Source: an uncultured virus (IMG/VR IMGVR_UViG_3300028490_000003)
Taxonomy: Duplodnaviria; Heunggongvirae; Uroviricota; Caudoviricetes
Strand: one strand, 5' to 3'
IMG/VR virus record: IMGVR_UViG_3300028490_000003
Length of the DNA: 64,000 nucleotides
Part shown: positions 1 to 14,697 of the stretch, piece after piece
Layout: every line of letters starts with the position of its first letter
How positions within the stretch are numbered: the first letter of the stretch is position 1
Notes under the pieces: model-generated
What the model saw: the letters and a program-made list of their open reading frames with translations, nothing else
What the model was told of the DNA's origin: nothing
Database searches by the model: none
Translations under genes and position numbers: made by a program

Positions 1-612
1 AAAACCTGCTGTCTTATGCACTCCCGCATTGCGAATATAGTCCACATCATGAATGTGTCCAAAGCATACTAACTTAGGTTTTATTTTTAAAATTCTTTTA
101 TTTAATGCACTATCTCCAACACTTTCAATAGAATGATCACGATTCAGTGTAGTGTCAAGAATACCTTTCGGCGGTCCGTGTGTTACAAGAATATCAGTAT
201 CTTCTGGAATAGAATTCCAAACTCTACTAATTTTACTTCTATCTTTCATGAAACTCCAGTTACCAAAATTTGGTGTATGAGGTGATCCCCATATCTGTAA
301 TCCCATAATGTCAATAGTATCATTAAATAAATAATCAATACCCAATTTGTCAAAGAGCTTTTTGTGCCATAATAAGTGCTCTACTGCACTATCATGATTT
401 CCTGCCACATATATTTTAAACATAATTGGTAAGGCAGCATACCAATTAGCAAAGTCTCGTATCTCAGGGTCACTTCTATAAGGATCCCCGTAATTTCCTG
501 CATCTCCAGAGTGTATAACTAAATCTATATCCTCTGGTATATCTATCTTAGAATGGTATCCATGAGTATCACTCAAGTGCCATATTCTAATTTTATTCTT
601 GTCTAAGCTCAT
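1..612 (-). CDS. Calcineurin-like metallophosphoesterase (3' end runs off window)
   Basis: Manual translation from ATG at 612 gives MSLDKNKIRIWHLSDTHG...IHSGD...VAGNHD...VTHGPP...FGHIH, the D-x-H, GD, GNHD, H and GHxH motifs. Absent from the ORF track because it is truncated. Confidence 0.9.
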   Translation of the reverse strand, partial: MSLDKNKIRIWHLSDTHGYHSKIDIPEDIDLVIHSGDAGNYGDPYRSDPEIRDFANWYAALPIMFKIYVAGNHDSAVEHLLWHKKLFDKLGIDYLFNDTIDIMGLQIWGSPHTPNFGNWSFMKDRSKISRVWNSIPEDTDILVTHGPPKGILDTTLNRDHSIESVGDSALNKRILKIKPKLVCFGHIHDVDYIRNAGVHKTAGF

Positions 613-931
613 CTTTATCAAAATTAAAGTGGCCCATTTTATCCAAACCTTTTAGTATTAATTCAATTTCATCGTGGTGTAGAGGAAACAATTTATCATT
701 TCCTTTTTCATCAGACATTGAGAAATCAAATCCTTCTCCATTACTCCATTCAGTTATATGCATTAATAACTCAGAGTATTTTCCATTTCCTATTGGTTGT
801 TTAGATGTAAAAGCAAATGCTCTTACTTTTCTTTCGAACTTAGGGTTAAATTCATTTCCCATAACTTTAGGATCATCCCCAAGAACAAAATCAACAAATC
901 TTTTTATTTTCTTTTTAATTTTTTTCTTCAT
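593..931 (-). CDS. hypothetical protein
   Basis: 112 aa ORF, co-oriented and overlapping the next gene's start. Confidence 0.7.
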   Translation of the reverse strand: MKKKIKKKIKRFVDFVLGDDPKVMGNEFNPKFERKVRAFAFTSKQPIGNGKYSELLMHITEWSNGEGFDFSMSDEKGNDKLFPLHHDEIELILKGLDKMGHFNFDKDELRQE

Positions 932-1063
932 CTTATCTTATTATCATCGCTATAATGACATAAAACATATTGATATCATATAAGGATAGATAATATATTA
1001 GCCATTTTAGCATATTAGTACTGGTTTTAGTTAATATAGTGTCCATTTTCCTTATAATTTTAG

Positions 1064-1137
1064 TTGCGCAGGAGGGATTCGAACCCCCGACCTCAAGGTT
1101 ATGAGCCTTGCGAGCTGGCCAACTGCTCTACCGCGCG
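1064..1137 (-). tRNA. tRNA-Met(CAT), initiator-like
   Basis: CGCGCGG...CTGCGCA-A with C1:A72 mismatch, anticodon loop CTCATAA, GGTTCGAATCC T arm. Confidence 0.93.
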
Positions 1138-1148
1138 ATGTTAATTTG

Positions 1149-1220
1149 TACTGCCGAAGGGAATCGAACCCTCGTTTTCACCGTGAAAGGGTGGTGTCCT
1201 GGCCGTTAGACGACGGCAGC
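1149..1220 (-). tRNA. tRNA-Glu(TTC)
   Basis: Cloverleaf, loop CTTTCAC, T arm GGTTCGATTCC. Confidence 0.93.
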
Positions 1221-1230
1221 AAATAATTTG

Positions 1231-1301
1231 TTGACTTAGAAGGATTCGAACCCTCGCTATGTGGACCAAAACCACATGTGCTACCGTTACACCATAAGTC
1301 A
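1231..1301 (-). tRNA. tRNA-Gln(TTG)
   Basis: Cloverleaf, stem TGTGG/CCACA, loop TTTTGGT. Confidence 0.93.
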
Positions 1302-1306
1302 AAATT

Positions 1307-1340
1307 AAAAAAACCTCTAAAATTTCTAATAGAGGTTCTT
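1307..1340 (-). terminator. Intrinsic terminator/attenuator immediately upstream of the Gln-Glu-Met tRNAs
   Basis: AACCTCTA-loop-TAGAGGTT followed by a U-run on the minus strand. Confidence 0.8.
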
Positions 1341-1364
1341 TTATATACAATAACAATAAATACC

Positions 1365-1448
1365 TCAAGTATAAAACATAAATTCCCCACCTTGCACTCT
1401 AATGCACTGTGTATTCTTTATCGAACTTGTATTTATAAAACGAATCAT
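1365..1448 (-). CDS. Putative leader peptide (27 aa) MIRFINTSSIKNTQCIRVQGGEFMFYT
   Basis: ATG..TGA ORF between the promoter motif (1485-1496) and the terminator; the stop overlaps TGAGGT, complementary to ACCTC in the terminator 5' arm. Confidence 0.7.
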   Translation of the reverse strand: MIRFINTSSIKNTQCIRVQGGEFMFYT

Positions 1449-1484
1449 TTGCGACTTTATTGTTTAAATTAATTTTTACACCTA

Positions 1485-1496
1485 TATAATACTAAA
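1485..1496 (-). promoter_or_regulatory. Recurrent TTTAGTATTAT promoter-like motif
   Basis: Same motif found in at least 8 other positions at the head of transcription units. Confidence 0.65.
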
Positions 1497-1519
1497 TATT
1501 TTTAATAATATAAAGTAAA

Positions 1520-2029
1520 TTAGAAAAATAAATATAATTTCCATTCCTCAGGTATATATTTAAGTTGCTTCATTAACATTAAATAATGAGGTCTTTTTGG
1601 AATTGGTATATCTTTACCATACTCTTCTAAAGTAAGATCTGCTTTTTCACCATTACATTTTTTACACGCAGTTACTAAGTTATCCCAAGTATTTTGACCT
1701 CCTTTAGCTTTTGGTACTACATGATCAAGCGTAAGAAGTTTTTTATTATCTTCCCCACAATAAACACATTCATAATTATCTCTACGATAAATATTATCTC
1801 TATTAAGAGGTACTTTATGATATTCTAGTTTAACGTATTTTTTTACACGAATAACTGAAGGTTTCTTTATATCCAGGTTAGGATTAACTAATTTAAAACT
1901 CTCAGGGTGTTCATGTATAATTTCAGCATTACCTTTATAAGCTATAACAAAGGCTCTCTCGGTAGTAATAATACTCCGTGCTGTGTATGTATTGTCGACA
2001 ACTAATGCCTTTGTATATTTATAACTCAT
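1520..2029 (-). CDS. HNH endonuclease (McrA-like)
   Basis: RDNYECVYCG...LTLDHVVPKAKGG...WDNLVTACKKCN. Confidence 0.92.
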   Translation of the reverse strand: MSYKYTKALVVDNTYTARSIITTERAFVIAYKGNAEIIHEHPESFKLVNPNLDIKKPSVIRVKKYVKLEYHKVPLNRDNIYRRDNYECVYCGEDNKKLLTLDHVVPKAKGGQNTWDNLVTACKKCNGEKADLTLEEYGKDIPIPKRPHYLMLMKQLKYIPEEWKLYLFF

Positions 2030-3165
2030 ATTTTAAACCATTTTGTTTTAAACATTATTGGATCAATCAAAGGTAAATTAGAAGCAGAAATACGCTCCAT
2101 TCTATACCCAAGCTTTAAAATACCTTTATGGCATGTCTGTCCAAATCTGTATAATTTATCAATTTGTTCTTTAGTAATAGGTACATCTTTTTCTCCTAAC
2201 TCAGCTCTTTCATAGCCTGCATAAAGAATCCAATTACCATGTTGTTTTACCCAACCATTTTGCTCTAACCATTCTGTTTCATTAACACTATTTTCAAAAT
2301 CTTCAGGGATAACTCCAACATCTACAAGCATATCTGCTATTTGATTATGCAACATAAGAGCTATATCACCATTGAGGCCATAATAGTCCCCATTAGGTGC
2401 TAACCATCCAGCGTCATATCCTTCAAGAATATCTACAGGCTTTATACCTTCTAGCGATATTCCATCAATCTTACGTACATCATCCATGTAATCTTCAAGA
2501 GCATCAATATAAGTAATTTTCTCTTCTATTGCAGCATCAGGTGTTTGAATCATTCTATGAAGTTCATAAAAACTTTCAGGAAGTTCTATATCTTCAGCAG
2601 TAAAACCCACTTGAACATCTAGTTCTTTACCTTTTCTAATAATATCACCCCAAACTTTAAACTGTCTAACACTTTTATCTAATATATCCATAGAGAGTTT
2701 AATAGCTCCAGCATATACAGAAAATTCTCTGTCTACTACATCAGTGATTGCTTTTACATTCTCTTCTCTAAAGTATTTATTAAGTTCTCCTCTACCATAA
2801 TAAATGTCAATTGTAGGGGCTTTAGTACCTTCTGTAGCTAAAAATGATCTAGCTAAAGTAAGTTCTTTACTAAATATACTTACTTTCTTTTGTATATTAT
2901 CAAACTTAATTAATCTACTGATATTTTTAGTATCTACAATAATTTCTTGTGCCTCCACATCTTCTTCTATAAAATAATGTCCTAATAATACTCTAAAGGC
3001 CATTGTTTCATCAATACCCACTAAACTATTTTTTATTACTTTAATAGCTTTCTTAAGATTGAAGTCATAGAGTAAAGTTTCTTGAGCAATATTTGTAAGT
3101 ATTTCTCCAAATCCTTCTCCTATAGTAAAATGTAATGTATCCATTTTAAAATATTGAATAATCAT
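2026..3165 (-). CDS. hypothetical phage protein
   Basis: 379 aa ORF with a GWLAPNG...H motif; function not recognised. Confidence 0.8.
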   Translation of the reverse strand: MIIQYFKMDTLHFTIGEGFGEILTNIAQETLLYDFNLKKAIKVIKNSLVGIDETMAFRVLLGHYFIEEDVEAQEIIVDTKNISRLIKFDNIQKKVSIFSKELTLARSFLATEGTKAPTIDIYYGRGELNKYFREENVKAITDVVDREFSVYAGAIKLSMDILDKSVRQFKVWGDIIRKGKELDVQVGFTAEDIELPESFYELHRMIQTPDAAIEEKITYIDALEDYMDDVRKIDGISLEGIKPVDILEGYDAGWLAPNGDYYGLNGDIALMLHNQIADMLVDVGVIPEDFENSVNETEWLEQNGWVKQHGNWILYAGYERAELGEKDVPITKEQIDKLYRFGQTCHKGILKLGYRMERISASNLPLIDPIMFKTKWFKI

Positions 3166-3400
3166 CTACAAAATGCGGATGAAATTTGTAAAATTCTTTA
3201 TATTGACCTGCATTAACTTTTGACCATATCTCATGTTTTTCAGGAGTCTCTCCCCAGTTAAACATATAATTTAACTTTTCTTTTCCTTGAACTCCAAATG
3301 CTTTTGAGTATCCTATTTTTTCAAGCCTTCGTTGAATAGCTATTTCTGCTATATCAGTAGGAATTTCTTCAAACTTTGAATTATATATTGTTCGTGCCAT
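3146..3400 (-). CDS. small protein with C-terminal DDYSIF tag
   Basis: 84 aa; FNWxxTPE motif shared with 7011-7268. Confidence 0.8.
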   Translation of the reverse strand: MARTIYNSKFEEIPTDIAEIAIQRRLEKIGYSKAFGVQGKEKLNYMFNWGETPEKHEIWSKVNAGQYKEFYKFHPHFVDDYSIF

Positions 3401-3402
3401 AT

Positions 3403-3645
3403 TTAATAATCAATTAAACATATCCTAGGGGTTTTTTTAAGTTTTTCCCATTTTTCCTCTGTTTCACAAGCATCATCAGCTGACCAAGTAGAATCAAAGA
3501 GTTTATAATCTCTTCCATCTTTTTCTACTATAAATTCTGTAGCTATACCATCTACTTTCATAGCTAATCCTTGATGGTCTGGTAACATTACTTCCAATTC
3601 ATCTGGCATATAATATAATGCTTTTTTTAATTCTAGTACTGTCAT
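3403..3645 (-). CDS. hypothetical protein
   Basis: 80 aa, tightly packed with neighbours. Confidence 0.75.
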   Translation of the reverse strand: MTVLELKKALYYMPDELEVMLPDHQGLAMKVDGIATEFIVEKDGRDYKLFDSTWSADDACETEEKWEKLKKTPRICLIDY

Positions 3646-3647
3646 AA

Positions 3648-3941
3648 CTAAAATATTGAATAACCGTCATAAACTTCATCTTTTTTCATAGGAGTATCAA
3701 TTCCTAACCCTGAAAATAATTCATTTTCTGCTACTACATAACGTCGTGTAATCCAGTTAGTAGCAGAACCATAGAAAGAAATCTTGTAGGTAGTAATTTT
3801 ACCTACAAGTTCTCTCTTTTCTTCTACATGTATATTATTTCCTCTATCTATTATAATACCTTTTACAGTACGTACAGCATTATTAAGGTTAAAATGTCCA
3901 TGTAATAAATTATTAGGATTTATTCCGTTCCTTTTAGCCAT
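3648..3941 (-). CDS. small protein with C-terminal DGYSIF tag
   Basis: 97 aa, tightly packed. Confidence 0.8.
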   Translation of the reverse strand: MAKRNGINPNNLLHGHFNLNNAVRTVKGIIIDRGNNIHVEEKRELVGKITTYKISFYGSATNWITRRYVVAENELFSGLGIDTPMKKDEVYDGYSIF

Positions 3942-4414
3942 TAGTCCTGTAAAATCTTACTAATATCACCTAAATCTTTGGCTAATTTTGCTTTAGCACT
4001 CAAGTTAGCTTCAAGCTTAGTTTTAACTTGTACTAATTTCTCTAATTCAGTTTTATTTTCAACTGATTGTACACGCCCAGCAATATCTGTTTTCCAAGCA
4101 GTACCAGTGTACCCCTGTAGTTTAAAAGGATATTTCTGTATATCTACTTTTAATTCAGAAGCAGCTTTTTCATATGCCTCTTGTTTAGCATTAACTACAG
4201 AATAAGCTTTAGTAAGTCCTTCTACAGTATCAATACTTTTGATAGTTCCAAAACCTGACAAACTGGCACCATTAGTAGTACCTGATTTACCTCTTTTAGG
4301 AGTTAAAGAATCAATTTTCTTTTGAACCATTTCTAATAATCCTGGAATATCATCCTGTCCTAAATTAGTTAAATTTAAGTTGTCTTTTTTTGTTGTAACT
4401 TCTGTTGTACTCAT
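3941..4414 (-). CDS. hypothetical helical protein
   Basis: 157 aa; stop overlaps the next start (TAATG). Confidence 0.85.
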   Translation of the reverse strand: MSTTEVTTKKDNLNLTNLGQDDIPGLLEMVQKKIDSLTPKRGKSGTTNGASLSGFGTIKSIDTVEGLTKAYSVVNAKQEAYEKAASELKVDIQKYPFKLQGYTGTAWKTDIAGRVQSVENKTELEKLVQVKTKLEANLSAKAKLAKDLGDISKILQD

Positions 4415-4445
4415 TTTTCTTATTTATTTATTTATTATTTTAATT

Positions 4446-4694
4446 TTAATTCCATTCTCTTGTTGAAAATAATGGTCTAATTTTTTCATATTCCATCATA
4501 TCTCTACTTATTTCATAAGAATCTGCCCATCGTTCTCTAACAGCTATTTTTTCTAGTTGCTCTCTACGATCGTCTATAGCTATTGCTATTAAATATTTTT
4601 CATCTTTATCAAATAATTTTTTAACTACCCAATCTCTAAATTGTATTTTCCATATACTAATCTTAAATTTTAAGTTGTTCATGAAAACATCCAT
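4446..4694 (-). CDS. hypothetical protein
   Basis: 82 aa ORF; start may be the second Met. Confidence 0.7.
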   Translation of the reverse strand: MDVFMNNLKFKISIWKIQFRDWVVKKLFDKDEKYLIAIAIDDRREQLEKIAVRERWADSYEISRDMMEYEKIRPLFSTREWN

Positions 4695-4879
4695 TTACCA
4701 ATTGACCAAAGTATCCATACTATTGCTGCAGACAATGCAATTTGTGCTACTATCCAAAGACATCCTCCACCTAGTGCTAAACCTGCGGCTGTTGCGTCTT
4801 CACTATCTTCCCCACTAAGAAGCATTCCTATATAGGTTGCTAGACCTAAAAATAAGATTATACCTATTATTATCCACAT
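4679..4879 (-). CDS. small membrane protein (2 TM)
   Basis: Two hydrophobic stretches. Confidence 0.75.
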   Translation of the reverse strand: MWIIIGIILFLGLATYIGMLLSGEDSEDATAAGLALGGGCLWIVAQIALSAAIVWILWSIGKWMFS

Positions 4880-4880
4880 A

Positions 4881-5033
4881 TTATATAGTTGTTATTATAT
4901 TATACATAGATGTAACAATAACAAATACACTTAGCCATGCTATTAATCCTAAAGCTATTGCTAAAGGTCTGTTGATTAAAACGTTTCTTTTAAAAGAAAA
5001 CATCCACCATACCATTGTAAAATATTCTTTCAT
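4881..5033 (-). CDS. small membrane protein (50 aa)
   Basis: Manual translation MKEYFTMVWW...IALGLIAWLSVFVIV...; exactly fills the gap between neighbours. Confidence 0.6.
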   Translation of the reverse strand: MKEYFTMVWWMFSFKRNVLINRPLAIALGLIAWLSVFVIVTSMYNIITTI

Positions 5034-5035
5034 AA

Positions 5036-5317
5036 CTATCTATTTTTTATTATTATTTGATAATCTACTACTGTACTATCTTTACCTTTTAAAGCATATA
5101 CTTCTATATCTCCTTGAGCTATTTTAGTATACATTACTTTTCTTTGTATTGATAATGCCACTAAACTAATAGCTGCTACTACAAAAATTAATAATGCCAT
5201 TGATCTTTCATCATATGGCCCAGCATTTGTTCCAAGTGTTAAAGATAAAAATATTATTAAACTAATTACACCTACTATTATGAGGCCTACTATTATTAGT
5301 ATTAAAACTATTTCCAT
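5036..5317 (-). CDS. small membrane protein (2 TM)
   Basis: Two hydrophobic stretches. Confidence 0.75.
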   Translation of the reverse strand: MEIVLILIIVGLIIVGVISLIIFLSLTLGTNAGPYDERSMALLIFVVAAISLVALSIQRKVMYTKIAQGDIEVYALKGKDSTVVDYQIIIKNR

Positions 5318-5338
5318 TTTATTTAAATTTAATTATTA

Positions 5339-5370
5339 AAAAAGGCCAAACAAATTAATGTTTGGCCAAT
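5339..5370 (-). terminator. Intrinsic terminator after the TROVE gene
   Basis: GGCCAAACA/TGTTTGGCC hairpin plus U-run on minus. Confidence 0.8.
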
Positions 5371-5391
5371 GAATATATCAAAATACTGAAG

Positions 5392-6975
5392 TTATATTAC
5401 TATAGCTTCAATTTCTTTCAAGAGTGCTCGTGGATCCAATTCTACTTTCTTAGCCATTTCATAAATGTCTTGACCATACCCGTATAATTGACACACTTTC
5501 TTTTCTTGTTTAAACATTGTAGAACCATATCCTTGAATATCTACAGTATAAATATAAGGCATACCATATTTTTTCTTATATGATTGATAAGAACTTCCAG
5601 AAACAATACTATCTCCTCCTTGTAAGTCAGAAATAATAAATATTCTATCATAATGAGTACCATTTAATTCAGCAAAAATATTTCCAAAATTAGTACCATG
5701 CCCAACTTTACCTTGACTATTAATAACAGTTTTTTTAATAGTATTAATACTATCAAGTCTATTAAATAGAATACCTTGAGTAGTTGTAGCAAATTGAAAT
5801 AAATCAGCACCAATACCTTTTGCAAAAGTAGCCCCAATAAGAGCAGCTTTTTCAATAGGATTCTTGTTAAGATTTACACTACCAATTTTACAACCAGAAC
5901 CCCACATACCCCACATAGATCCAGACGTATCTACAACAACAGCTGTATTACCATCAGGAAATAGCTCAGCAAGATTAGGAACAGCTAATTCATAAGCAGT
6001 ATCAATTGCTTTTAGAATCTTTAAAGGTATTTTCACACCTTCAGCTACCATAATCTCCATAGCGATATCTATTTGATGAGGAAAAATAAGAGATTGTTTG
6101 ATTAATTTCTTATCAGTCAACATAGCAACAACATCATCTATAGTATCAGCATTAATACCAGCTTTAAGAATATTTCTTAAGTTTCTGATTAATGCAAAAT
6201 AACCAATCTTTCTTGTACTTATAAGTTCAGAAAAGTTCTCTTTCTTAGCTTGTTTTACTTGTACTTCCGCTTCAGTCTTAGTAATTTCACCACTAATAAC
6301 TTTAGCAGCTACTTCTTGTCCAGATTTAGTATTCTTATCTTCAACAGTATTAAACTGTGTAAGATTACCTTTCATAAGTTTTTCAAATACTTCAATCATA
6401 TTATCCTCAGGTCTTGGATGAACTAAGTTAACAATATCTACAAGAGATATAGCTTTACCTTTTCCTTGATATTTCGCAAGTTCATAAGTATCAGCATGCT
6501 CTAAAGCATTTCTAAATCCTTTCTTTATTGCTCCAGGTAAAGGTTTTCCAGGGTTAAAATGAAAATAGGCTGCAGCGATTTCTAACATATCATCTAAACG
6601 ATGAACGATACCACCTGTCTCAGCTTTTCTATTTCTTTTGCTAAAAAACCTTTTTCCTAATTCCATACCAGATAGGTGAGGAACTAAACCTACAGCTCCT
6701 AAATGAGTAACAGAACGTTGTCCAATTACTGATCTAGTATATACTAAAGCTTTAGCAACAAATTCAATATCCTTAGGAGTTTTTGCTACTTTTCCAACTA
6801 ATTCTAACAGACGTTTACTTCTGTCATCTAAAGTTTCATAGTATTTATTACCGCTAATTCCAGTTGCTAATAAACTAATTAATTCTAATTTTGGGCTTAA
6901 TTTAAACCCTTCTCCACCTTGATGATTTATAATCTTTTCAGGGGCTCTTTTAGTTTTTTGGTTGTACATTGACAT
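5392..6975 (-). CDS. Ro60/Rsr-like TROVE-domain RNA-binding protein with C-terminal vWA domain
   Basis: N-terminal NHQGGEGF..SPKLEL, YELAKY, LxDIVNLVHPRP, YFALIRNLRNI, and MIDAS motif VDTSGSM...GT...IISDLQ. Confidence 0.93.
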   Translation of the reverse strand: MSMYNQKTKRAPEKIINHQGGEGFKLSPKLELISLLATGISGNKYYETLDDRSKRLLELVGKVAKTPKDIEFVAKALVYTRSVIGQRSVTHLGAVGLVPHLSGMELGKRFFSKRNRKAETGGIVHRLDDMLEIAAAYFHFNPGKPLPGAIKKGFRNALEHADTYELAKYQGKGKAISLVDIVNLVHPRPEDNMIEVFEKLMKGNLTQFNTVEDKNTKSGQEVAAKVISGEITKTEAEVQVKQAKKENFSELISTRKIGYFALIRNLRNILKAGINADTIDDVVAMLTDKKLIKQSLIFPHQIDIAMEIMVAEGVKIPLKILKAIDTAYELAVPNLAELFPDGNTAVVVDTSGSMWGMWGSGCKIGSVNLNKNPIEKAALIGATFAKGIGADLFQFATTTQGILFNRLDSINTIKKTVINSQGKVGHGTNFGNIFAELNGTHYDRIFIISDLQGGDSIVSGSSYQSYKKKYGMPYIYTVDIQGYGSTMFKQEKKVCQLYGYGQDIYEMAKKVELDPRALLKEIEAIVI

Positions 6976-7010
6976 TTTCTTATTATTTAATGGGTTATTA
7001 TTTATTTAAT

Positions 7011-7268
7011 TTAAAATACTGAATAATTATCAATATTTTCTGTATATTTTTTATAGAGAAGTTTAAGGTTATCATTTTGTTTATCCCAATAATTACCTCC
7101 TTCAGGAGATATATGCCAATTAAAACCTTTACCGTGAGTACACATATTAAGACACATATTATCATCTACTTCACATTCTTCAGCTAGTATATTTTTAACA
7201 GCTTTTTTATATAATACAGGATGTGATTCTTTTACAAACCATAAAGGTACTTCTTTTAATATGATCAT
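7011..7268 (-). CDS. small protein with C-terminal DNYSVF tag
   Basis: 85 aa; FNWHISPEGGNYW motif. Confidence 0.8.
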   Translation of the reverse strand: MIILKEVPLWFVKESHPVLYKKAVKNILAEECEVDDNMCLNMCTHGKGFNWHISPEGGNYWDKQNDNLKLLYKKYTENIDNYSVF

Positions 7269-7287
7269 AATTTTAATTTTGTTTAAT

Positions 7288-7320
7288 AAAAAAGGCCGCC
7301 CAAATTAATGAGCGGCCTTG
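7288..7320 (-). terminator. Intrinsic terminator after the Y-RNA-like cluster
   Basis: AAGGCCGC/GCGGCCTT hairpin plus U-run; loop region caaattaatg is identical to the 5339 terminator. Confidence 0.8.
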
Positions 7321-7327
7321 TTAAAAA

Positions 7328-7484
7328 AAGGTAGAGAATACGTGAGAGAGGTTTGCCATTTTTAGGGTGATGACACCACCATGGTTTACGAGCCCGATGT
7401 CTCGCTTCTTTCTCAATGTATAGTGTAATGTCTAGCATTACTTTATAAAATGTTACGATGTAACTCTTTCATTACTACTACCTT
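7328..7484 (-). ncRNA. Y-RNA-like (Yrl-like) ncRNA, copy A
   Basis: Terminal stem AAGGTAG/CTACCTT, conserved GTAGTA..GAGTTACATCG and ATTCTC motifs, close to the TROVE gene. Confidence 0.7.
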
Positions 7485-7490
7485 ATAATT

Positions 7491-7568
7491 TAACAAGGGA
7501 ATTAGTGCGGTGTGTTATGTGTAAAATACCAAAAATTTCGAAGTAACACAGGTGCTTACCACTTGTTA
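7491..7568 (-). ncRNA. Y-RNA-like ncRNA, copy B (minimal)
   Basis: TAACAAG/CTTGTTA stem, GTGGTA..GTGTTACTTCG..ATTCC. Confidence 0.7.
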
Positions 7569-7583
7569 TATATGTTTAAAAAA

Positions 7584-7715
7584 TAAGGGGGAATGCTGGG
7601 ATGAGCATAATGATATAAATGCAGGACTTGAACCCGCGACGTTTTGTTCCGAATACAAATGATCTAACCAACTGATCTAATTTACGATGAAACTCATGGA
7701 TCCTCACCACCCTTA
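7584..7715 (-). ncRNA. Y-RNA-like ncRNA, copy C, carrying a tRNA-like body (anticodon TCG)
   Basis: TAAGGG/CCCTTA stem, GAGTTTCATCG, then D arm GATCAGTTGGTTAGATC, TTTGT-ATTCGGA-ACAAA, T arm GCGGGTTCAAGTCCTGC. Confidence 0.75.
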
Positions 7716-7780
7716 ATTTTTTATTTTTCAATGAACTTTCTACTACTAAAACGTAATAGATATTGTTTTATTGTTTGAAA

Positions 7781-8044
7781 TTATTTAATTCCTCCAATAA
7801 GTACCCCATTTTTAAATATGAGTACTCCTTTTGTTTCTAAGATAAAATAAACAAATTTATTTTTACCTTTAGTAACTCTTTTTACTTTGATCACTTTAAC
7901 GCCTTTAGCTCCTTGCTTAGTTACGTTCTTAAGTGTGATAGCATTACTGTCAATAGTATATACTTGACCCTTTTTCATGTCTTGTGCCTGTGCAGATACC
8001 ACCATTCCGATGACTAATACTGCTAATATAAATAATTTTCTCAT
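7781..8044 (-). CDS. small secreted protein
   Basis: Sec signal peptide MRKLFILAVLVIGMVVSAQA-Q. Confidence 0.8.
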   Translation of the reverse strand: MRKLFILAVLVIGMVVSAQAQDMKKGQVYTIDSNAITLKNVTKQGAKGVKVIKVKRVTKGKNKFVYFILETKGVLIFKNGVLIGGIK

Positions 8045-8661
8045 TAAAATGTAACTTTTATACCTGCGTCAATCGAAGGTAATTTTAGAACATAATGTTC
8101 ATTTTCAAATTTTCTAGCTGCGTCTACTTTATAATCGTAATCACCATCATCAAAATACTCATCATCAAGTGTGATATCTAGATTCATCTTTTGCATATTA
8201 TATCCTGCAAATGCACCTACTGTAATACCATTTTTAAGTTCATAGTTATATCCAACATTACCTGTTATATGTAATTTACCTGTAGCGGCTACATTTATAT
8301 AACTATAGTTAAAATCATAATTATAAAACATATGTCCTACATCCATATTAACATATAAACCATCTACCCAAGGTAAATTGTATGCAAATCTTGCAAATAC
8401 TGGATAAGTCTGAAATCCTTCTTCTACAAAGTCATCTTTAAATATGTTAATTCCTGCTCCAATACCAACTTCGAAATCTCCAAGAGGTGCTGTAGCAATA
8501 GCATACGCCGTTAACTTATCAAAATCTAATTGTAGCTCATCGTTTTTATCAGCTACACTAAAACCATATCCTATCTCTAAATCAGGTCTAATTTTAAACT
8601 TTTGCGCGTAAACGCCCGTTGTGAATAACAATATAGCTATTCCTAAAATAATTCTTTTCAT
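8044..8661 (-). CDS. Outer-membrane beta-barrel protein
   Basis: Signal peptide (..VYA-Q), alternating aromatic/Gly beta strands, C-terminal AGIKVTF beta signal. Confidence 0.8.
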   Translation of the reverse strand: MKRIILGIAILLFTTGVYAQKFKIRPDLEIGYGFSVADKNDELQLDFDKLTAYAIATAPLGDFEVGIGAGINIFKDDFVEEGFQTYPVFARFAYNLPWVDGLYVNMDVGHMFYNYDFNYSYINVAATGKLHITGNVGYNYELKNGITVGAFAGYNMQKMNLDITLDDEYFDDGDYDYKVDAARKFENEHYVLKLPSIDAGIKVTF

Positions 8662-8679
8662 AATCTGTTTTTAAATTAG

Positions 8680-8763
8680 TACTCCTGACTGGATTCGAAC
8701 CAGCAAGCCTTTCGGCGTCAGATTTTAAGTCTGATGTGTTTACCTAAATTTCACCACAAGAGC
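8680..8763 (-). tRNA. tRNA-Leu(TAA)
   Basis: Loop CTTAAAA, long variable arm GCCGAAAGGC. Confidence 0.93.
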
Positions 8764-8770
8764 AGTTATG

Positions 8771-8974
8771 TTATTTACCATTTAAGATATCTAACAAAGC
8801 ACCCATTACTTGTTGGTTGCTTTCTCCCCAAAACATCTCACATTTAAAAACTCCTTTATCTATTACAAAAGGTTCCACTAAAAATATAGGATTATCAATC
8901 TCAGGATTTTCATCATATCTATGACATTTTTCTTTTACAGGACATTTAGTCCCTTTACACAGTGTTATGTCCAT
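8771..8974 (-). CDS. small Cys-rich protein
   Basis: MDITLCKGTKCPVKEKCHRY...CEMFW; start placed at the second Met. Confidence 0.75.
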   Translation of the reverse strand: MDITLCKGTKCPVKEKCHRYDENPEIDNPIFLVEPFVIDKGVFKCEMFWGESNQQVMGALLDILNGK

Positions 8975-9278
8975 AATCTTTAAATTTATCAGGTAGAACA
9001 CCGTTCCACCATATATATTCACTGTTTTCAGTTTTAAACCTACACAATTTACATTGCTCAGTTTCTATTTCTTCTAAAATCTCTGTAACCAATGTTGTGG
9101 TCCAGTTATCAAATAAACTACTATATAAAATAACACCGTTTCCTATTAAAGGATAAACACCATCATTTTTATTATATGTTCTATCGTCGCTCCAATTGAC
9201 AGACATAGATCTTTTACAATTAATCTCTTTGCCGTCTCGTTTTCTTCTTAGATGAAAAGGCATTACGGTATGAACCAT
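8955..9278 (-). CDS. hypothetical protein
   Basis: 107 aa; WTTTLVTEILE...FKTENSEY. Confidence 0.75.
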   Translation of the reverse strand: MVHTVMPFHLRRKRDGKEINCKRSMSVNWSDDRTYNKNDGVYPLIGNGVILYSSLFDNWTTTLVTEILEEIETEQCKLCRFKTENSEYIWWNGVLPDKFKDYGHNTV

Positions 9279-9478
9279 TTTTCATTCAACGTAAATTTTC
9301 CACCTGAGGATATTCCCCAACCTTCTACTACTTCAACAGTCCAATTACCTTTTCCTTTCATAAACATGCCAGGATCTAATTGAGCTAGTAATGTAACAGT
9401 AGCTGCTCCAAGTTCATGTGGAACTTCCATATTATCTTCGATCTCTACTGTATCACCGACTTCATAGATTATTTTCAT
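9263..9478 (-). CDS. hypothetical protein
   Basis: 71 aa; YEVGDTV start motif. Confidence 0.75.
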   Translation of the reverse strand: MKIIYEVGDTVEIEDNMEVPHELGAATVTLLAQLDPGMFMKGKGNWTVEVVEGWGISSGGKFTLNEKWFIP

Positions 9479-9508
9479 ATTATTTTATTTATTTAGTTTA
9501 GTATTAAA

Positions 9509-9647
9509 AACAGAGGAATGCTAGAAAGAGCAAAACCAAATTGTCTTCCCATTTTATATTATTCTTTAGTGGGAAGAGCAGGAGTCGAACCTACACTATT
9601 TAATGATATATGAATCACGAAGTAACTCTTATTCTTTACCATCTGTT
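9509..9647 (-). ncRNA. Y-RNA-like ncRNA, copy D (T arm plus closed acceptor-like stem)
   Basis: AACAGA/TCTGTT stem, GAGTTACTTCG, GTAGGTTCGACTCCTGC, TCTTCCCA/TGGGAAGA. Confidence 0.75.
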
Positions 9648-9656
9648 ATATTGTTG

Positions 9657-9742
9657 AGGAGAGAATGGGATTTGAACCCATGCGCCTGTTACAGCCTATT
9701 GATTTAGCAAACCAACCTCTTAAACCGCTTGAGTACCTCTCC
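9657..9742 (-). tRNA. tRNA-Ser(GCT)
   Basis: Loop TTGCTAA, long variable arm. Confidence 0.92.
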
Positions 9743-9791
9743 TGGAGCGGGCTTAGTGATAAAACTAAGTATCATCCCGCATGTATTATTG

Positions 9792-9872
9792 TCTCCCAGG
9801 TAGGGATCGAACCTACACGCCTTGCGGACCAGATTTACAGTCTAGCGAGCCAGCCAAATGCTCAACTGAGAG
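9792..9872 (-). tRNA. tRNA-Tyr(GTA) with C1-G72
   Basis: CTAGA-CTGTAAA-TCTGG, variable arm CCGCAAGG, T arm GTAGGTTCGATCCCTAC. Confidence 0.88.
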
Positions 9873-9878
9873 ATATTG

Positions 9879-9947
9879 TGGGAACAGCGAGATTCGAACT
9901 CACCTGCTAGCGATTTACAGTCGCGGCACCTATGCCTGAGTGCTCCC
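9879..9947 (-). tRNA. atypical tRNA-Tyr(GTA)-like gene
   Basis: GGGAGCA/TGTTCCC acceptor, GCGA-CTGTAAA-TCGC, T loop TTCGAAT; shrunken D arm and no long variable arm. Confidence 0.7.
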
Positions 9948-9994
9948 GTGATCATTGTTTATAAGCCTTTCAGCAGGTACAACGATAAAACCTT

Positions 9995-10282
9995 TTATTT
10001 TAATTTAGCTTCAATTTTTTCTAAAATACTTAATTTATCTTCAATTCTCCATAAAGAACTTAATATATGTTGTAATACAATTACACCTTGTTGTTGTACA
10101 GTAGCGCCAGTTTTAAAGTCTTTTTCAAATTCTTTTTCTTTATAACCAAAATTTTCTACTGCTACCATATTATCTATAAAAGCTTGTAATTGTTTAGGTT
10201 CCATACTATCTTTTAATTTTTGGATAGATCCTATTTTATGTTCTATTTGAGCTTTAAAACCATAATCATTTATATATGTCAT
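9995..10282 (-). CDS. hypothetical protein
   Basis: 95 aa ORF between tRNAs. Confidence 0.75.
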   Translation of the reverse strand: MTYINDYGFKAQIEHKIGSIQKLKDSMEPKQLQAFIDNMVAVENFGYKEKEFEKDFKTGATVQQQGVIVLQHILSSLWRIEDKLSILEKIEAKLK

Positions 10283-10307
10283 TTAATTTTATTTAATTTA
10301 TTATATG

Positions 10308-10380
10308 CGGTCTACATGGGAGTCGAACCCACAATCTTCGCAGTGACAGTGCAACATGTTACCAACAACACCTCTAGACC
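10308..10380 (-). tRNA. tRNA-Asp(GTC)
   Basis: Loop CTGTCAC, G73. Confidence 0.92.
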
Positions 10381-10484
10381 ATTTTATATTATAACGTTAA
10401 CGAGCACCTTTTATCCTTGTACTATTAAACCTTGGGAATGGCAGCGCAATTAAGTATCACCTATTATACCAACGGTTAACGTTT

Positions 10485-10580
10485 TAGTTATGAACGGATT
10501 TCATACCGCCAGCTCAACTCTTTAACAGAGAGACGCGTTATTTTCTACATATTTGTAGAGAGTATTAACACCACATAACT
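10485..10580 (-). tRNA. degenerate tRNA-Asn(GTT)-like RNA with expanded D arm
   Basis: AGTTATG/CATAACT acceptor, CTCT-CTGTTAA-AGAG, non-canonical T arm GGCGG-TATGAAAT-CCGTT. Confidence 0.55.
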
Positions 10581-10634
10581 TATGATATATCATTCATTAA
10601 CCCTTAAAAAGGTACTTAATGTAGTATATTTCAT

Positions 10635-10790
10635 TCAATCTTCTTTCTTCTTACTAAATATATAAAAAGTTAAAGCGAGTATACTTAATATAAAAAATAC
10701 TACAAAATCTGTTCTATTTTCAGCTACTACAGCATTATAAGACAGTATTAATAATGCCCAAAAAGACATTAAGCTTTCAGTTCTTTTCAT
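10635..10790 (-). CDS. small membrane protein
   Basis: MKRTESL... with two hydrophobic segments; the track's upstream extension overlaps tRNA-Ala. Confidence 0.65.
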   Translation of the reverse strand: MKRTESLMSFWALLILSYNAVVAENRTDFVVFFILSILALTFYIFSKKKED

Positions 10791-10812
10791 TTTATTTGTT
10801 TTAGTTAAATTG

Positions 10813-10888
10813 TGGAGCCGATGGGATTTGAACCCACGATCTTCTGATTGCAAAACAGACGCTTTAAGCCAGGCTAAGCTACGGTCCC
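10813..10888 (-). tRNA. tRNA-Ala(TGC)
   Basis: Loop TTTGCAA, G3.U70. Confidence 0.92.
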
Positions 10889-10896
10889 AAGTAAAA

Positions 10897-11047
10897 AATT
10901 AATAGAGAATAATGGAGGGAGTGAAACACATAAAGTGCCTGAATGAAAATCAGGTGACCTAACCACTAGTCAAATTGGGCAATGCTGCTCAATATAGGAT
11001 TCGAACCTATGAAACGAAGTAACTCCTATTCCTCACTACTATTAATT
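10897..11047 (-). ncRNA. Y-RNA-like ncRNA, copy E, carrying a circularly permuted tRNA-Glu(TTC)-like module
   Basis: AATTAATAG/CTATTAATT stem, GAGTTACTTCG, then T arm, closed acceptor hairpin, D arm, CCTGA-TTTTCAT-TCAGG. Confidence 0.78.
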
Positions 11048-11050
11048 TAT

Positions 11051-11428
11051 TTATTTATATAATACCATTATGGTTGATGGTGCTTGTACTACTACAGTAT
11101 CATCATAAATATATACTACTATATTATCAGAGTAAAAAATTATTTCATCTTTTCTTTGAGTAAGCGTTTGTATATTAGTTAAATGTATATTAGATGTTTG
11201 TCCATCATCAGTATGTAAATCTATTGTTATAGTTTTATCTGGATTAAATGAAAATATACCACGTACATGTATTATATCAGAATAGACAAACATATGAGAG
11301 TATTTATCCATGTGGGCAATTGATGCTTGTGTAGGATAAAATTGTAGTCTTTCTCTACTTTCTCCTTCATAATCTTGTGCAAATAGCATATTACTCAAGA
11401 ATAATACTATTATTAATATTTTTTTCAT
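11051..11428 (-). CDS. secreted protein
   Basis: Signal peptide MKKILIIVLFLSNMLFA-Q. Confidence 0.8.
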   Translation of the reverse strand: MKKILIIVLFLSNMLFAQDYEGESRERLQFYPTQASIAHMDKYSHMFVYSDIIHVRGIFSFNPDKTITIDLHTDDGQTSNIHLTNIQTLTQRKDEIIFYSDNIVVYIYDDTVVVQAPSTIMVLYK

Positions 11429-11447
11429 ATCTGCTTATTTAAATTTG

Positions 11448-11521
11448 AGCCTCCAGAGGGATTCGAACCCACGACATTCTCATTACAAGTGAGATGCTCT
11501 GGCCAACTGAGCTATGGAGGC
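11448..11521 (-). tRNA. tRNA-Thr(TGT)
   Basis: Loop CTTGTAA, canonical cloverleaf. Confidence 0.94.
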
Positions 11522-11640
11522 ATGGCAGGGGCTTTGGTACCATACGCCTGAGGTTGGACCCCCCAGGAAACTCGAGCCCCTATATTGCAATTACTTTGAC
11601 ACTTTAAAACTTCACAAGAGGTGTGTAATTGCTATATTAT

Positions 11641-11829
11641 TTAAAATATTTCATAGTCGTATTCTATAGGCTTTTTCCATTGCTCTATTAAATACTTTGC
11701 TTTATTAGCTGCATAAGGAACTGGAATAGATAACCAAGCAGCTGTTGTTAATTCCATTACATAGGCTTCTATGTTAAGTTCAGTAATTTCTCCTGTAACA
11801 TATAAATAATGTAGATCTTTTACATCCAT
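11641..11829 (-). CDS. small protein with C-terminal YDYEIF tag
   Basis: 62 aa. Confidence 0.75.
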   Translation of the reverse strand: MDVKDLHYLYVTGEITELNIEAYVMELTTAAWLSIPVPYAANKAKYLIEQWKKPIEYDYEIF

Positions 11830-12065
11830 TATTTTATATATTTTGAGATATTAATTACTCCTTCTATATTACCATGTCTTGCAACAATGTCCTCATCTTC
11901 ATCATCTAATTCAGCATTTTGAATATCTTCTGCATTAAATGCAAATTCTTCAGATAATTCTAAAAGTCTTATTCTATCTATTTGATGTCCCTCTTCAACA
12001 AGTTCTCCATCTATATAAATAGCTTCCCAATCACCAGATTGAGTATTTATAATTATTATTTTCAT
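11829..12065 (-). CDS. acidic hypothetical protein
   Basis: 78 aa; GDWEAIYIDG..EGH. Confidence 0.8.
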   Translation of the reverse strand: MKIIIINTQSGDWEAIYIDGELVEEGHQIDRIRLLELSEEFAFNAEDIQNAELDDEDEDIVARHGNIEGVINISKYIK

Positions 12066-12067
12066 AT

Positions 12068-12358
12068 TTAAAATATTTCATAATTATCATTAAATGTAGT
12101 ACCCATTATTTCATCTACATAATTACTATATGCTTCAGCACTTATCATAGGATCCCAAGCTTTATTATCAATACCTACACGACCATTAAAATAGCCTACG
12201 TATCTCATATTAGTAACTTTATAATAATCAAAATTTACATCATTTTGGTTATCAGAGTTTCTAAATTTATTAAAGATTAAATCAGCTTTATTTATATATA
12301 ACTGTCTCTCTTTATTATTACTTACTGAAACACAAAAAGTATCTGTTAGTATATTCAT
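12068..12358 (-). CDS. small protein with C-terminal DNYEIF tag
   Basis: Start moved to MNILTD because the track's start overlaps tRNA-Trp. Confidence 0.75.
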   Translation of the reverse strand: MNILTDTFCVSVSNNKERQLYINKADLIFNKFRNSDNQNDVNFDYYKVTNMRYVGYFNGRVGIDNKAWDPMISAEAYSNYVDEIMGTTFNDNYEIF

Positions 12359-12385
12359 TTTGTTTAATTTATTTATTAAAATTTG

Positions 12386-12456
12386 CACGCCTTAAAGGAT
12401 TCGAACCCTTACAAAGAGGTTTGGAAGCTCTTGTGCTACCATTACACTAAAGGCGC
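12386..12456 (-). tRNA. tRNA-Trp(CCA)
   Basis: Loop TTCCAAA by cloverleaf spacing, G73; C31.C39 mismatch. Confidence 0.85.
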
Positions 12457-12500
12457 GTGTTAATTATTTTATTATCCAATATGTCAAAGACCATGTCTTG

Positions 12501-12583
12501 TACTCCTAGAGAGAATCGAACTCTCATGCCTCTCGGCACTAGATCCTAAATCTAGCGTGTCTACCTAATTCCACCATAGGAGC
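12501..12583 (-). tRNA. tRNA-Leu(TAG)
   Basis: CTAGA-TTTAGGA-TCTAG, long variable arm. Confidence 0.93.
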
Positions 12584-12754
12584 AAAATGAACTATAAAAC
12601 CAGGAGCGTACCCTGGAGACTAATTCCACCACATCCCGTGGCTCTTTTAATTTCATAATGGATCCCTAAAAACTCTTTCGAGAAAACTTAGATCCATCAT
12701 TAATAGTTACACCGAGGGGATCCCTTACACTATTAACGTTTTCTTCTCATTTTG

Positions 12755-12829
12755 GGTGAAAGATGGGTTTCGAACCCACGACCTCTTGAACCACAATCAA
12801 GCGTTCTAACCAACTGAACTACAATCACC
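12755..12829 (-). tRNA. tRNA-His(GTG)
   Basis: Loop TTGTGGT, G-1:C73. Confidence 0.93.
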
Positions 12830-12836
12830 ATATTAA

Positions 12837-13085
12837 CTACTTACATCCTATTGGTATATCTTCATATATCATATGAGTAGTATCTTTCATTATTAAGATA
12901 GCACTACCATCACAAAACGTGTAAATAATATTACCTTCATCACCATCTTCTTCATCTTTAAATGTTGAGACAGCTTTTTCTTTAATTTTATTAACTACTT
13001 CTTTTGTTAAATTACCTTCAAATACATGTACTACAGGTAAATATGAGGGTTTAACAGCAAAGTCTAATAGTGTTTTTGCTATCAT
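12837..13085 (-). CDS. hypothetical protein
   Basis: 82 aa ORF. Confidence 0.75.
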   Translation of the reverse strand: MIAKTLLDFAVKPSYLPVVHVFEGNLTKEVVNKIKEKAVSTFKDEEDGDEGNIIYTFCDGSAILIMKDTTHMIYEDIPIGCK

Positions 13086-13086
13086 T

Positions 13087-13221
13087 TTATTTTAAGCATT
13101 CATCAACTAGTTCTTGAAATAAGTCTCTTGGTAATTCAAATGCTGATATAAGTACATCTATATCATCTTCTGACATTTCTTCCAAGCGCTTTCTCAACTT
13201 TGTTAATTTTATTTCTGCCAT
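13087..13221 (-). CDS. small hypothetical protein (44 aa)
   Basis: Manual translation MAEIKLTKLRKRLEEMSEDDIDVLISAFELPRDLFQELVDECLK; abuts the next start. Confidence 0.65.
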   Translation of the reverse strand: MAEIKLTKLRKRLEEMSEDDIDVLISAFELPRDLFQELVDECLK

Positions 13222-13252
13222 TTTATTTAATTTAGTATTTTAATGAACTTAG

Positions 13253-13326
13253 TATGTCTAGAGGGACTCAAACCCCCAACCTCTAAGGCCGTAACTTAGG
13301 GCTCTATTCAATTGAGCTATAGACAT
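13253..13326 (-). tRNA. tRNA-Arg(ACG)
   Basis: CTAAG-TTACGGC-CTTAG. Confidence 0.92.
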
Positions 13327-13331
13327 AAATG

Positions 13332-13407
13332 TCGGAGTGGTCAGATTCGAACTGACGTGCTCTGCATCCCAAATGCAGCGAGATAAACCGTGCTCCTCTA
13401 CACCCCG
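13332..13407 (-). tRNA. tRNA-Pro(TGG)
   Basis: CTGCA-TTTGGGA-TGCAG, C1-G72, A73. Confidence 0.93.
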
Positions 13408-13411
13408 TAAT

Positions 13412-13447
13412 AAAAAAACCTGATACTTTTAAGGGATATCAGGTTTT
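13412..13447 (-). terminator. Intrinsic terminator/attenuator immediately upstream of the large tRNA cluster
   Basis: AAAACCTGATAT-CCCTTAAAA-GTATCAGGTTTTTTT. Confidence 0.85.
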
Positions 13448-13473
13448 ATATATTTAACTAAAATATTATGATA

Positions 13474-13551
13474 TCACCTAACATACCTATCCGCACTATG
13501 ATCTAGCCATAATGTTCGCGGAGTTTGATATGTGTATAAAGATGTTCTCAT
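13474..13551 (-). CDS. Putative leader peptide (25 aa) MRTSLYTYQTPRTLWLDHSADRYVR
   Basis: ATG..TGA ORF between promoter motif and terminator; its codons match downstream tRNAs; AGGTGATATCA across the stop is complementary to the terminator 5' arm. Confidence 0.8.
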   Translation of the reverse strand: MRTSLYTYQTPRTLWLDHSADRYVR

Positions 13552-13584
13552 ACTATTTAAACGTTTTATTTATTTAGTTATTAC

Positions 13585-13596
13585 AATAATACTAAA
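13585..13596 (-). promoter_or_regulatory. TTTAGTATTAT promoter-like motif
   Basis: Recurrent motif about 35 nt upstream of the leader ATG. Confidence 0.65.
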
Positions 13597-13637
13597 CTTT
13601 TTTTAAAAAATAAAGTAAAACCAGTAATATTTATAAA

Positions 13638-14425: not shown

Positions 14426-14426
14426 T

Positions 14427-14690: not shown

Positions 14691-14697
14691 TTATTAT

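Follow-up and report, generated by a model that had tools for sequence, protein, structure and literature searches.

The 64,000-nucleotide stretch of DNA analysed here (the window), taken from the uncultured virus record IMGVR_UViG_3300028490_000003 of IMG/VR, derives from a phage with 33% G+C that encodes a large terminase, a portal and a head protein. Its terminase shares 22-28% identity with those of crAss-like and Flavobacterium phages among the listed matches that cover at least 64% of the query. Close to the first base of the window, on the minus strand, three tRNA genes (Gln, Glu and Met) are preceded by a leader-terminator region at 1516-1307, referred to here as unit B, and a twin of this arrangement, unit A, lies at 13.6 kb on the same strand. 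Both units combine a promoter-like motif, a short open reading frame (ORF) and an intrinsic terminator placed directly ahead of tRNA genes. A sequence-only reading of the window had described unit B as a leader-terminator unit ahead of the tRNAs, with a proposed antiterminator. The features of unit B and its surroundings are as follows.

1516-1485, minus strand: promoter-like motif, ACTTTAT-N14-TTTAGTATTATA, recognised by motif recurrence; TTTAGTATTATA itself lies at 1496-1485
1448-1365, minus strand: leader ORF of 27 codons from ATG to TGA, found by ORF reading of the leader; predicted translation MIRFINTSSIKNTQCIRVQGGEFMFYT, then stop
1366-1332, minus strand: candidate antiterminator, in which GAGGU-AUUU-UUGU (1366-1353) pairs with 1345-1332, from nascent-leader folds
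1342-1307, minus strand: intrinsic terminator with an 8-bp core, an A:U extension, a 10-nt loop and a run of seven Ts, from folds compared with shuffles
1301-1230, minus strand: tRNA-Gln (TTG), the first gene past the terminator (ARAGORN; Rfam RF00005, 63.2 bits)
1220-1148, minus strand: tRNA-Glu (TTC) (ARAGORN; Rfam RF00005, 58.4 bits)
1137-1063, minus strand: tRNA-Met (CAT), initiator-like (ARAGORN; Rfam RF00005, 61.4 bits)
2029-1520, minus strand: HNH endonuclease gene (phrog_16726, E = 2.4e-36)

The elements named in the sequence-only reading, that is the motif, a 27-residue ORF ended by UGA, a terminator and tRNA-Gln, were all found on the minus strand. The ORF runs from the ATG at 1448 to the TGA at 1367-1365 and is the sole suitable one in the three frames of the leader. 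Its ATG lies 37 nt from the end of the promoter motif, and its stop codon is followed after 27 nt by the core stem of the terminator, or after 23 nt by the A:U-extended stem. The terminator arms, AACCTCTA (1337-1330) and TAGAGGTT (1319-1312), are lengthened by an AAAAG extension that pairs with Ts. The T-run (1313-1307) ends five bases short of tRNA-Gln, and the 3' core arm 10 nt short of it. At -15.3 kcal/mol (z = -5.27) the hairpin was not equalled by any of 200 shuffles; it is weaker than one of the end-of-operon terminators (-20.4) and level with the other (-15.2). A simple terminator scan skipped it because of its 10-nt loop. There is no space for a further promoter between the terminator and tRNA-Gln and, since the terminator sits between the promoter and the first tRNA, the Gln-Glu-Met genes can be transcribed from this promoter only by read-through. 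Between tRNA-Met and the first base of the window the simple scan listed no terminator-like site on the minus strand, so that unit B probably continues into a 112-aa ORF, a phosphoesterase gene and beyond. A cmscan of 1-15000 against Rfam (E of 1 or less) gave 20 matches, of which 15 are tRNAs, four are weak matches to plastid families and one is to int-alpA, with no T-box, riboswitch or leader family.

The promoter-like motif recurs within the window. The 11-mer TWTAGTATTAT is present in seven copies where 0.87 +/- 0.95 would be expected, and none of 100 shuffles reached seven. All seven copies are intergenic and oriented toward the feature downstream, which is a protein gene in four cases, a permuted tmRNA in one and a tRNA leader in two. 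At the four protein genes the ATG follows the 11-mer after 17-34 nt. At the tmRNA the motif stands about 25 nt ahead of the RNA with no leader, and the leaders of about 170 nt are therefore an addition specific to the two tRNA operons. Four IMG/VR contigs with terminases 63-81% identical to that of the window contain the motif seven times in forward orientation, with no copy in reverse and none in a reversed control, and these copies again precede start codons. The motif is accordingly read as a putative promoter. According to a preprint on the crAss-like phage phi14:2, the middle and late promoters of such phages are sigma-70-like and used by the host RNA polymerase, and in 12 of 14 phages the promoter motif described there precedes a tRNA gene in at least one place (10.1101/2020.03.07.982082). 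The word TAGTATTAT was considered as a mapped middle promoter in phi14:2 and was ruled out, its forward copies there lying within genes of the opposite strand; phi14:2 has no tRNA.

Unit A spans 13616-13408 and has the following parts.

13616-13585, minus strand: promoter-like motif, by motif match
13551-13474, minus strand: leader ORF of 25 codons, also ending in TGA, from ORF reading and codon match; predicted translation MRTSLYTYQTPRTLWLDHSADRYVR, then stop
13447-13412, minus strand: terminator, -12.4 kcal/mol, z = -5.27, with none of 200 shuffles as good

The terminator of unit A ends four bases ahead of tRNA-Pro (13407). The common architecture and spacing that the earlier reading had seen in the two units is borne out by measurement, with 34 nt from motif to ATG in unit A against 37 nt in unit B, and a 30-nt spacer from stop to core stem (26 nt to the extended stem) against 27 nt (23 nt). 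Its description of the units as non-homologous holds in part, as they share a near-identical promoter stretch of about 35 nt. The layout does exceed chance, as had been argued. In addition to the excess of the 11-mer, only about 0.03 ORFs of 22-32 aa should stop by chance within any one 26-nt slot, and one is seen at both units. This figure is arithmetic from a comparison set of 142 small ORFs (ATG-initiated, 22-32 aa, both strands); a wider set holds 390 ATG-ORFs of 15-45 codons in the window. The use of UGA by both leaders is also unusual among the mostly UAA-ended genes, since 47 of the 50 ORFs of at least 100 aa end in TAA, two in TGA and one in TAG. Such a rare stop might prolong the stay of the ribosome at the stop codon.

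The codon match of unit A to the tRNAs behind it is strongly non-random. The 24 internal codons of its ORF cover all 12 tRNAs of the array at 13407-7612, which lies between unit A and a strong terminator at 7319-7292, and 11 of them stand in an unbroken run in which every codon is decoded by a phage tRNA. Against a background in which 29.6% of gene codons are cognate to these 12 tRNAs, full coverage arose in 2 of 2,000,000 simulated ORFs (P about 1e-6). It was reached by none of 13,976 real 24-codon gene windows, where the maximum was 10, and by one of the 390 small ORFs of the window, namely the unit A ORF itself.

In unit B it is the composition of the leader, and not its codon match, that departs from randomness, by tests that were picked after the data were seen. 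Leader B lacks exactly Pro, Leu, Trp, Asp, His and Ala, which are the amino acids served by array A only (p=3.3e-4; 2 of the 142 small ORFs are alike), and its codons cover 4 of the 12 tRNAs of array A. Leader A lacks Cys, Glu, Phe, Gly, Ile, Lys, Met and Asn (p=1.5e-6). Leader B contains each of the seven amino acids that no phage tRNA of the window serves (p=0.026), and between them the two leaders leave out none of the 20 amino acids (p=0.005).

The same design, promoter-ORF-terminator-tRNA, was found in other phages, in loci that had been fetched for other reasons. There are three units in the cultured Cellulophaga phage phi4:1 (NC_021788.1; leaders at about 87,030-87,195, 87,970-88,169 and 89,830-89,925), one in the uncultured 634-kb phage LR745206.1 and one in the IMG/VR locus L055. 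In phi4:1 a 36-nt promoter is present twice and carries a TAnnTTTG box, which we take to be of the Bacteroidota type. The first unit of this phage consists of the ORF MKIQRLHLQELEQPIISGGTGV, 27 nt, a terminator and a tRNA-Pro that begins 11 nt past the 3' arm; its leader covers the whole first block, 7 of 7 tRNAs (Pro, Glu, Gln, His, Leu, Leu and Arg; p=3.5e-5), and gives p=0.93 and p=1 against the two other blocks. Across the six mismatched leader-block pairs tested in phi4:1, p ranged from 0.018 to 1. In phi17:2 leader 1 differs by a single synonymous change, CAG to CAA. The second unit of phi4:1, read from GTG, gives MQLTKTGITVIDKTKGARAYLGDTVIG, in which 22 of 26 residues are among the amino acids of its block (p=3.6e-4). 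The third precedes tRNA-Tyr and reads MKTNYCTYNNSNWSFSY..., with 11 of 31 codons cognate to its block of Tyr, Ser, Asn, Trp and Phe (p=0.016). In LR745206.1 a leader containing ...ISIAVIGNGAGAI... stands ahead of Ile-TAT, Gly, Met, Gly, Gly and Ala and has 10 of 26 cognate codons (p=0.003), and the leader of L055 covers 21 of 23 tRNAs (p=0.012); no such unit was found at the second tRNA block of L055. Unit B shares the order of elements seen in this class, with its terminator less than 20 nt from the first tRNA, and its 27 codons fall within the class range of ORF sizes (about 22-47 codons).

Two annotated genes of phi4:1 touch on these units. The 39-aa hypothetical protein gp075 (L061 11048-11167) is annotated from a TTG start that lies inside the repeated promoter; a better reading makes it the leader ORF belonging to the second tRNA block. 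The gene product gp076 was considered as the third leader and rejected, the real third leader being the one ahead of tRNA-Tyr. Other short 'hypothetical proteins' annotated ahead of phage tRNA blocks are probably leaders too.

The geometry between stop codon and terminator is similar across these units. In each of the eight units measured the stop codon lies 20-30 nt ahead of the core stem, the distance being 27 nt in unit B and 30, 27, 26, 21, 20, 27 and 23 nt in the others. The 3' core arm is separated from the tRNA by 10 nt in unit B, by 11 nt in unit A, by 11, 10 and 9 nt in the phi4:1 units and by 17-19 nt in L075 and L055. In five of the eight units the antiterminator is equalled by no more than 4% of shuffles (0, 4, 9, 11 and 18 of 500). 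That of unit A, at -14.2 kcal/mol, is stronger than that of unit B and was matched by 18 of 500 shuffles. When leader B was cut ahead of the terminator 3' arm (nascent-leader folds), the antiterminator appeared at about -7 kcal/mol. Its 5' strand overlaps the stop codon and its 3' strand (1345-1332) takes in the 5' arm of the terminator. It stays when a ribosome footprint is placed at codons 9-21 and is gone with the footprint on codon 27 or on the stop codon. The GAGGU:ACCUC pairing at the stop that the earlier reading had proposed is thus seen in the folds, but it does not stand out from shuffled sequence, as described below; the pairing in the stop region is real, but it is no evidence by itself. 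No upstream hairpin is present that would sequester the antiterminator strand, and an untranslated leader should therefore read through.

Unit B very probably works as the leader-terminator of a tRNA operon and belongs to a class that recurs among phages and is apparently undescribed. As to how it works, we lean, though not far beyond an even balance, towards a ribosome-mediated attenuator that gates a tRNA operon which may run past the edge of the window. A promoter of the kind that serves structural genes and the tmRNA as well would start an RNA of about 170 nt carrying the 27-codon ORF and then the intrinsic terminator, whose U-run ends five bases ahead of tRNA-Gln. The Gln, Glu and Met tRNAs, and anything encoded past the window edge, would be made only when the polymerase reads through. 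A ribosome that reaches the UGA would cover the strand around the stop codon, the terminator would form and transcription would end. If the ribosome were delayed earlier in the ORF, as on codons that need the phage's own tRNAs, or were absent, that strand would be free, the antiterminator would form and the tRNA genes would be transcribed. The phage tRNAs so produced would ease the slow decoding that had triggered them, closing a negative feedback loop. For unit B itself we infer regulation of this kind, including ribosome-mediated attenuation, by analogy with the twin unit A and with the better copies in other phages; translation of the leader ORF, the direction of the switch, the nature of its signal and any specific sensing by unit B are all presumed on the same basis.

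Several results weigh against this account of unit B. The leader covers 3 of 3 tRNAs of its operon by way of CAG and CAA (Gln), GAA (Glu) and ATG, a coverage that is not exceptional (p=0.17), and its cognate codons number 4 of 26 (p=0.35). The CAA, GAA and ATG codons do stand late in the ORF in the order of the tRNAs, as the sequence-only reading had pointed out, with CAG earlier, but codons for Gln, Glu and Met also occur in 17 of the 142 small ORFs and in that order in 11 of the 142, so that no enrichment results. Furthermore, a C1xA72 mismatch is seen in the tRNA-Met, together with A11:T24 and with two of the three G:C pairs at the base of the anticodon stem; we take these to be the marks of an initiator. 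It looks, from these bases, like an initiator tRNA, in which case the internal AUG of leader B would be no sensor for it. The antiterminator of unit B was equalled or beaten by 152 of 500 shuffles in which the upstream part was shuffled, and full-length folds keep the terminator at every ribosome position tried. Three of the eight units lack an antiterminator beyond shuffles; these are unit B, the third unit of phi4:1 (97 of 500) and L055, where no arm pairing was found. The promoter of unit B is proposed from the motif. Among further phages, no unit was found in two from proteobacterial hosts (L073/L074; a Stenotrophomonas phage with 2 tRNAs and Serratia phage BF with dispersed tRNAs, the latter showing one hairpin without an ORF), nor in the IMG/VR phage lineage of L013, which carries tRNA-Gln and tRNA-Met. 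One of the eight units, that of L059, scores by codon match (23 of 33, p=0.001) but was set aside as unclean on account of a promoter-like TATATTTG between terminator and tRNA. Unit B is the weakest example of the design. The interpretation put forward in the earlier reading draws support from the layout, its duplication and its recurrence in unrelated phages, and none from the codon and antiterminator evidence of unit B alone.

In addition, searches of IMG/VR, JGI metagenomes, GTDB contigs and INPHARED brought up no relative with the unit B region. A blastn of 1000-2100 against INPHARED gave tRNA-level matches only. Scans of IMG/VR with the neighbouring 379-aa protein, with a 30-mer of tRNA-Gln and with a codon-degenerate pattern of ORF A gave no match, and a scan with the RNA-binding protein gave one locus (L001; 56% identity) without a tRNA. 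With TerL, the large terminase, four short contigs of 63-81% identity were obtained, again without a tRNA, and with the phosphoesterase 15 loci of 35-57% identity, none of which has an adjoining tRNA in this arrangement. The architecture pattern retrieved 5 loci, none of them read as related, and the T-arm of the tmRNA 6 loci, all from other phages. In JGI metagenomes the architecture scan gave 37 loci, 12 of them with a tRNA downstream on the same strand; 9 were read by eye, and in none of these did the leader or the promoter surroundings look related. Ten loci came from the scan of GTDB contigs, none of them with a tRNA. A search of sequencing runs listed one run, X1, at a share of 0.07, and no RNA run; at 80% likeness this run yielded divergent contigs, one of which spans 13236-13619 with 16 differences and 3 gaps.

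The lack of a significant codon match or antiterminator in unit B, together with full-length folds that always retain the terminator, would also be expected if the terminator were constitutive and leaky, its hairpin damping or insulating transcription into the tRNA genes, or if the hairpin shaped the 5' leader for processing. The 27-codon ORF would then be a chance frame in AT-rich DNA, of which the 390 ATG-ORFs of the wider set offer many. We consider this rather unlikely. A chance frame would have had to fall into the right 26-nt slot at both units, and this explanation accounts neither for the codon match of the unit A ORF nor for the recurrence of the ORF-spacer-terminator-tRNA geometry in unrelated phages, nor for an amino-acid set in leader B that complements array A.

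It is improbable that the ORF is instead a stand-alone small gene whose 27-residue peptide has a function of its own, the tRNAs being expressed by incidental read-through. The spacing of 37 nt between promoter and ATG does resemble that of the genes of this phage (17-34 nt), and the distance from stop codon to terminator is typical of gene ends. The peptide is, however, without recognisable feature and the tRNAs have no other promoter; moreover, the peptides of the better copies are built of the amino acids of the tRNAs behind them, which would be unexpected of a functional peptide. More improbable still is that the terminated transcript of about 170 nt is the product, a small RNA acting in trans. 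Promoter and terminator do bound a discrete RNA, and the whole leader of unit B folds somewhat better than shuffles (z = -2.58, 3 of 200 as good), but the leader matches no Rfam family at E of 1 or less and the codon matching of the sister units would be left unexplained.

If unit B is an attenuator of the kind favoured above, either its sensed set extends beyond the three visible tRNAs or it monitors decoding as a whole. The complementary composition of the two leaders raises the tentative idea that together they form a split decoding test for all 20 amino acids, each block being switched separately when its own codons become slow; we would not rate this as probable. Under such a split, leader A would perhaps sample only the amino acids of its 12 tRNAs, and leader B might, with similar doubt attached, sample Ile, Phe, Asn, Lys, Cys, Gly, Glu and Met along with the shared Arg, Thr, Ser, Tyr, Gln and Val. 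From the complementary set of leader B it would follow that operon B includes tRNAs for Ile, Phe, Asn, Lys, Cys, Gly and Val past the edge of the window. If such a split test does exist, slow decoding could follow, for example, from depletion of host tRNAs or from anticodon cleavage, and the supply of tRNA would meter itself.

Leader-peptide attenuators are well established in the amino-acid operons of Proteobacteria, where they include trpL, hisL, leuL, thrL, ilvL and pheL. Like these, unit B has a short promoter-proximal ORF and an intrinsic terminator ahead of the genes that would be regulated, and a potential alternative pairing with a 5' strand at the end of the ORF that a terminating ribosome would mask; the ORFs of the sister units are, in addition, rich in codons tied to the regulated product. 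Unlike in the trpL type, the regulated genes are tRNAs and not enzymes, and the better leaders sample many tRNAs, each through one or a few codons, where the trpL type has a run for one amino acid. The arrangement is also more compact, in that the 3' strand of the antiterminator is the 5' arm of the terminator with no obvious 1:2 hairpin. Unit B differs further in that its cognate codons are not enriched and that it matches no Rfam leader family. The leader of pheST (pheM) senses one amino acid, and T-boxes bind uncharged tRNA directly and need no ribosome. With these systems unit B would share the coupling of charged-tRNA supply to a component of the decoding apparatus by attenuation; unlike T-box leaders, it lies in a region (1-15000) without a T-box match.

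The antibiotic-responsive leaders of ermC, bmrB-bmrCD and vmlR control resistance genes (PMC4191407, PMC9226507 and PMC2965389). They resemble unit B in having a leader ORF without amino-acid specificity and in genes that are turned on when ribosomes slow, and such slowdown sensors would offer unit B its best parallel if the codon content of its leader is unspecific; they differ in output, which here is a set of phage tRNAs. In the literature searched there was no report of leader-peptide control ahead of phage tRNA genes, and the phrases 'tRNA gene', 'tRNA operon' and 'upstream of tRNA' are absent from an attenuator survey (PMC2965389). Leader-peptide attenuation itself is classical; its use on tRNA genes with a leader that samples many codons is apparently undescribed in that literature.

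It is still a matter of debate why tRNA genes are carried by phages and by what means they are controlled. If the attenuator reading is true, a leader that reads decoding speed on the codons of its own tRNAs would give a self-adjusting tRNA supply, and phage tRNA arrays would be tied to host measures that deplete or cut tRNAs. The presence of the design three times in a cultured, non-pathogenic marine phage-host pair, Cellulophaga baltica and phi4:1, makes it testable at the bench.

A number of further observations were made at and around these loci. The promoter motif of unit B starts 3 nt past the stop of the HNH endonuclease gene, and in a second phage lineage (L058) an HNH gene is likewise inserted just ahead of a tRNA. 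A large uncultured phage lineage has, at L014 7040-7195 (also L013, L017, L025, L036 and L041), a G+C-rich structured element without an ORF followed by a T-run directly before tRNA-Gln, and a second such element ahead of tRNA-Met; this may be a different type of leader.

The permuted (two-piece) tmRNA lies at 17263-16767 on the minus strand and matches Rfam RF04321 at 48 bits against a gathering score of 47; it was not called by ARAGORN. A frame ending ...GFRIAA-stop is found near 16790-16770, and the promoter motif at 17299-17289 is the same as that of the tRNA leaders.

Within operon A, tRNA-like fragments with T-arms of the GGTTCGAATCC type lie on the minus strand at about 11040-10985, 9955-9880, 9650-9590 and 7560-7500, three of them with the word GTTACTTCG. 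They were called by neither ARAGORN nor Rfam at E of 1 or less and could represent tRNAs in decay or small RNAs of an unusual type. The same operon contains a third hairpin, smaller and followed by a T-run, at 12616-12600 on the minus strand, 16 nt ahead of tRNA-Leu(TAG) at 12583. Upstream of it are a 15-codon ORF (MMDLSFLERVFRDPL) and, around 12730-12660, an inverted repeat rich in G+C; no promoter motif is present, and the hairpin may be an internal attenuator or a processing site. Finally, the loop CATTAATTTG is common to the end-of-operon terminators at 7319-7292 and 5367-5344 (both minus strand) and to the terminator of leader 1 of phi4:1 (L061, about 10216-10245), the stems being otherwise different. 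It may represent a terminator signature of the host lineage or a protein-binding loop.

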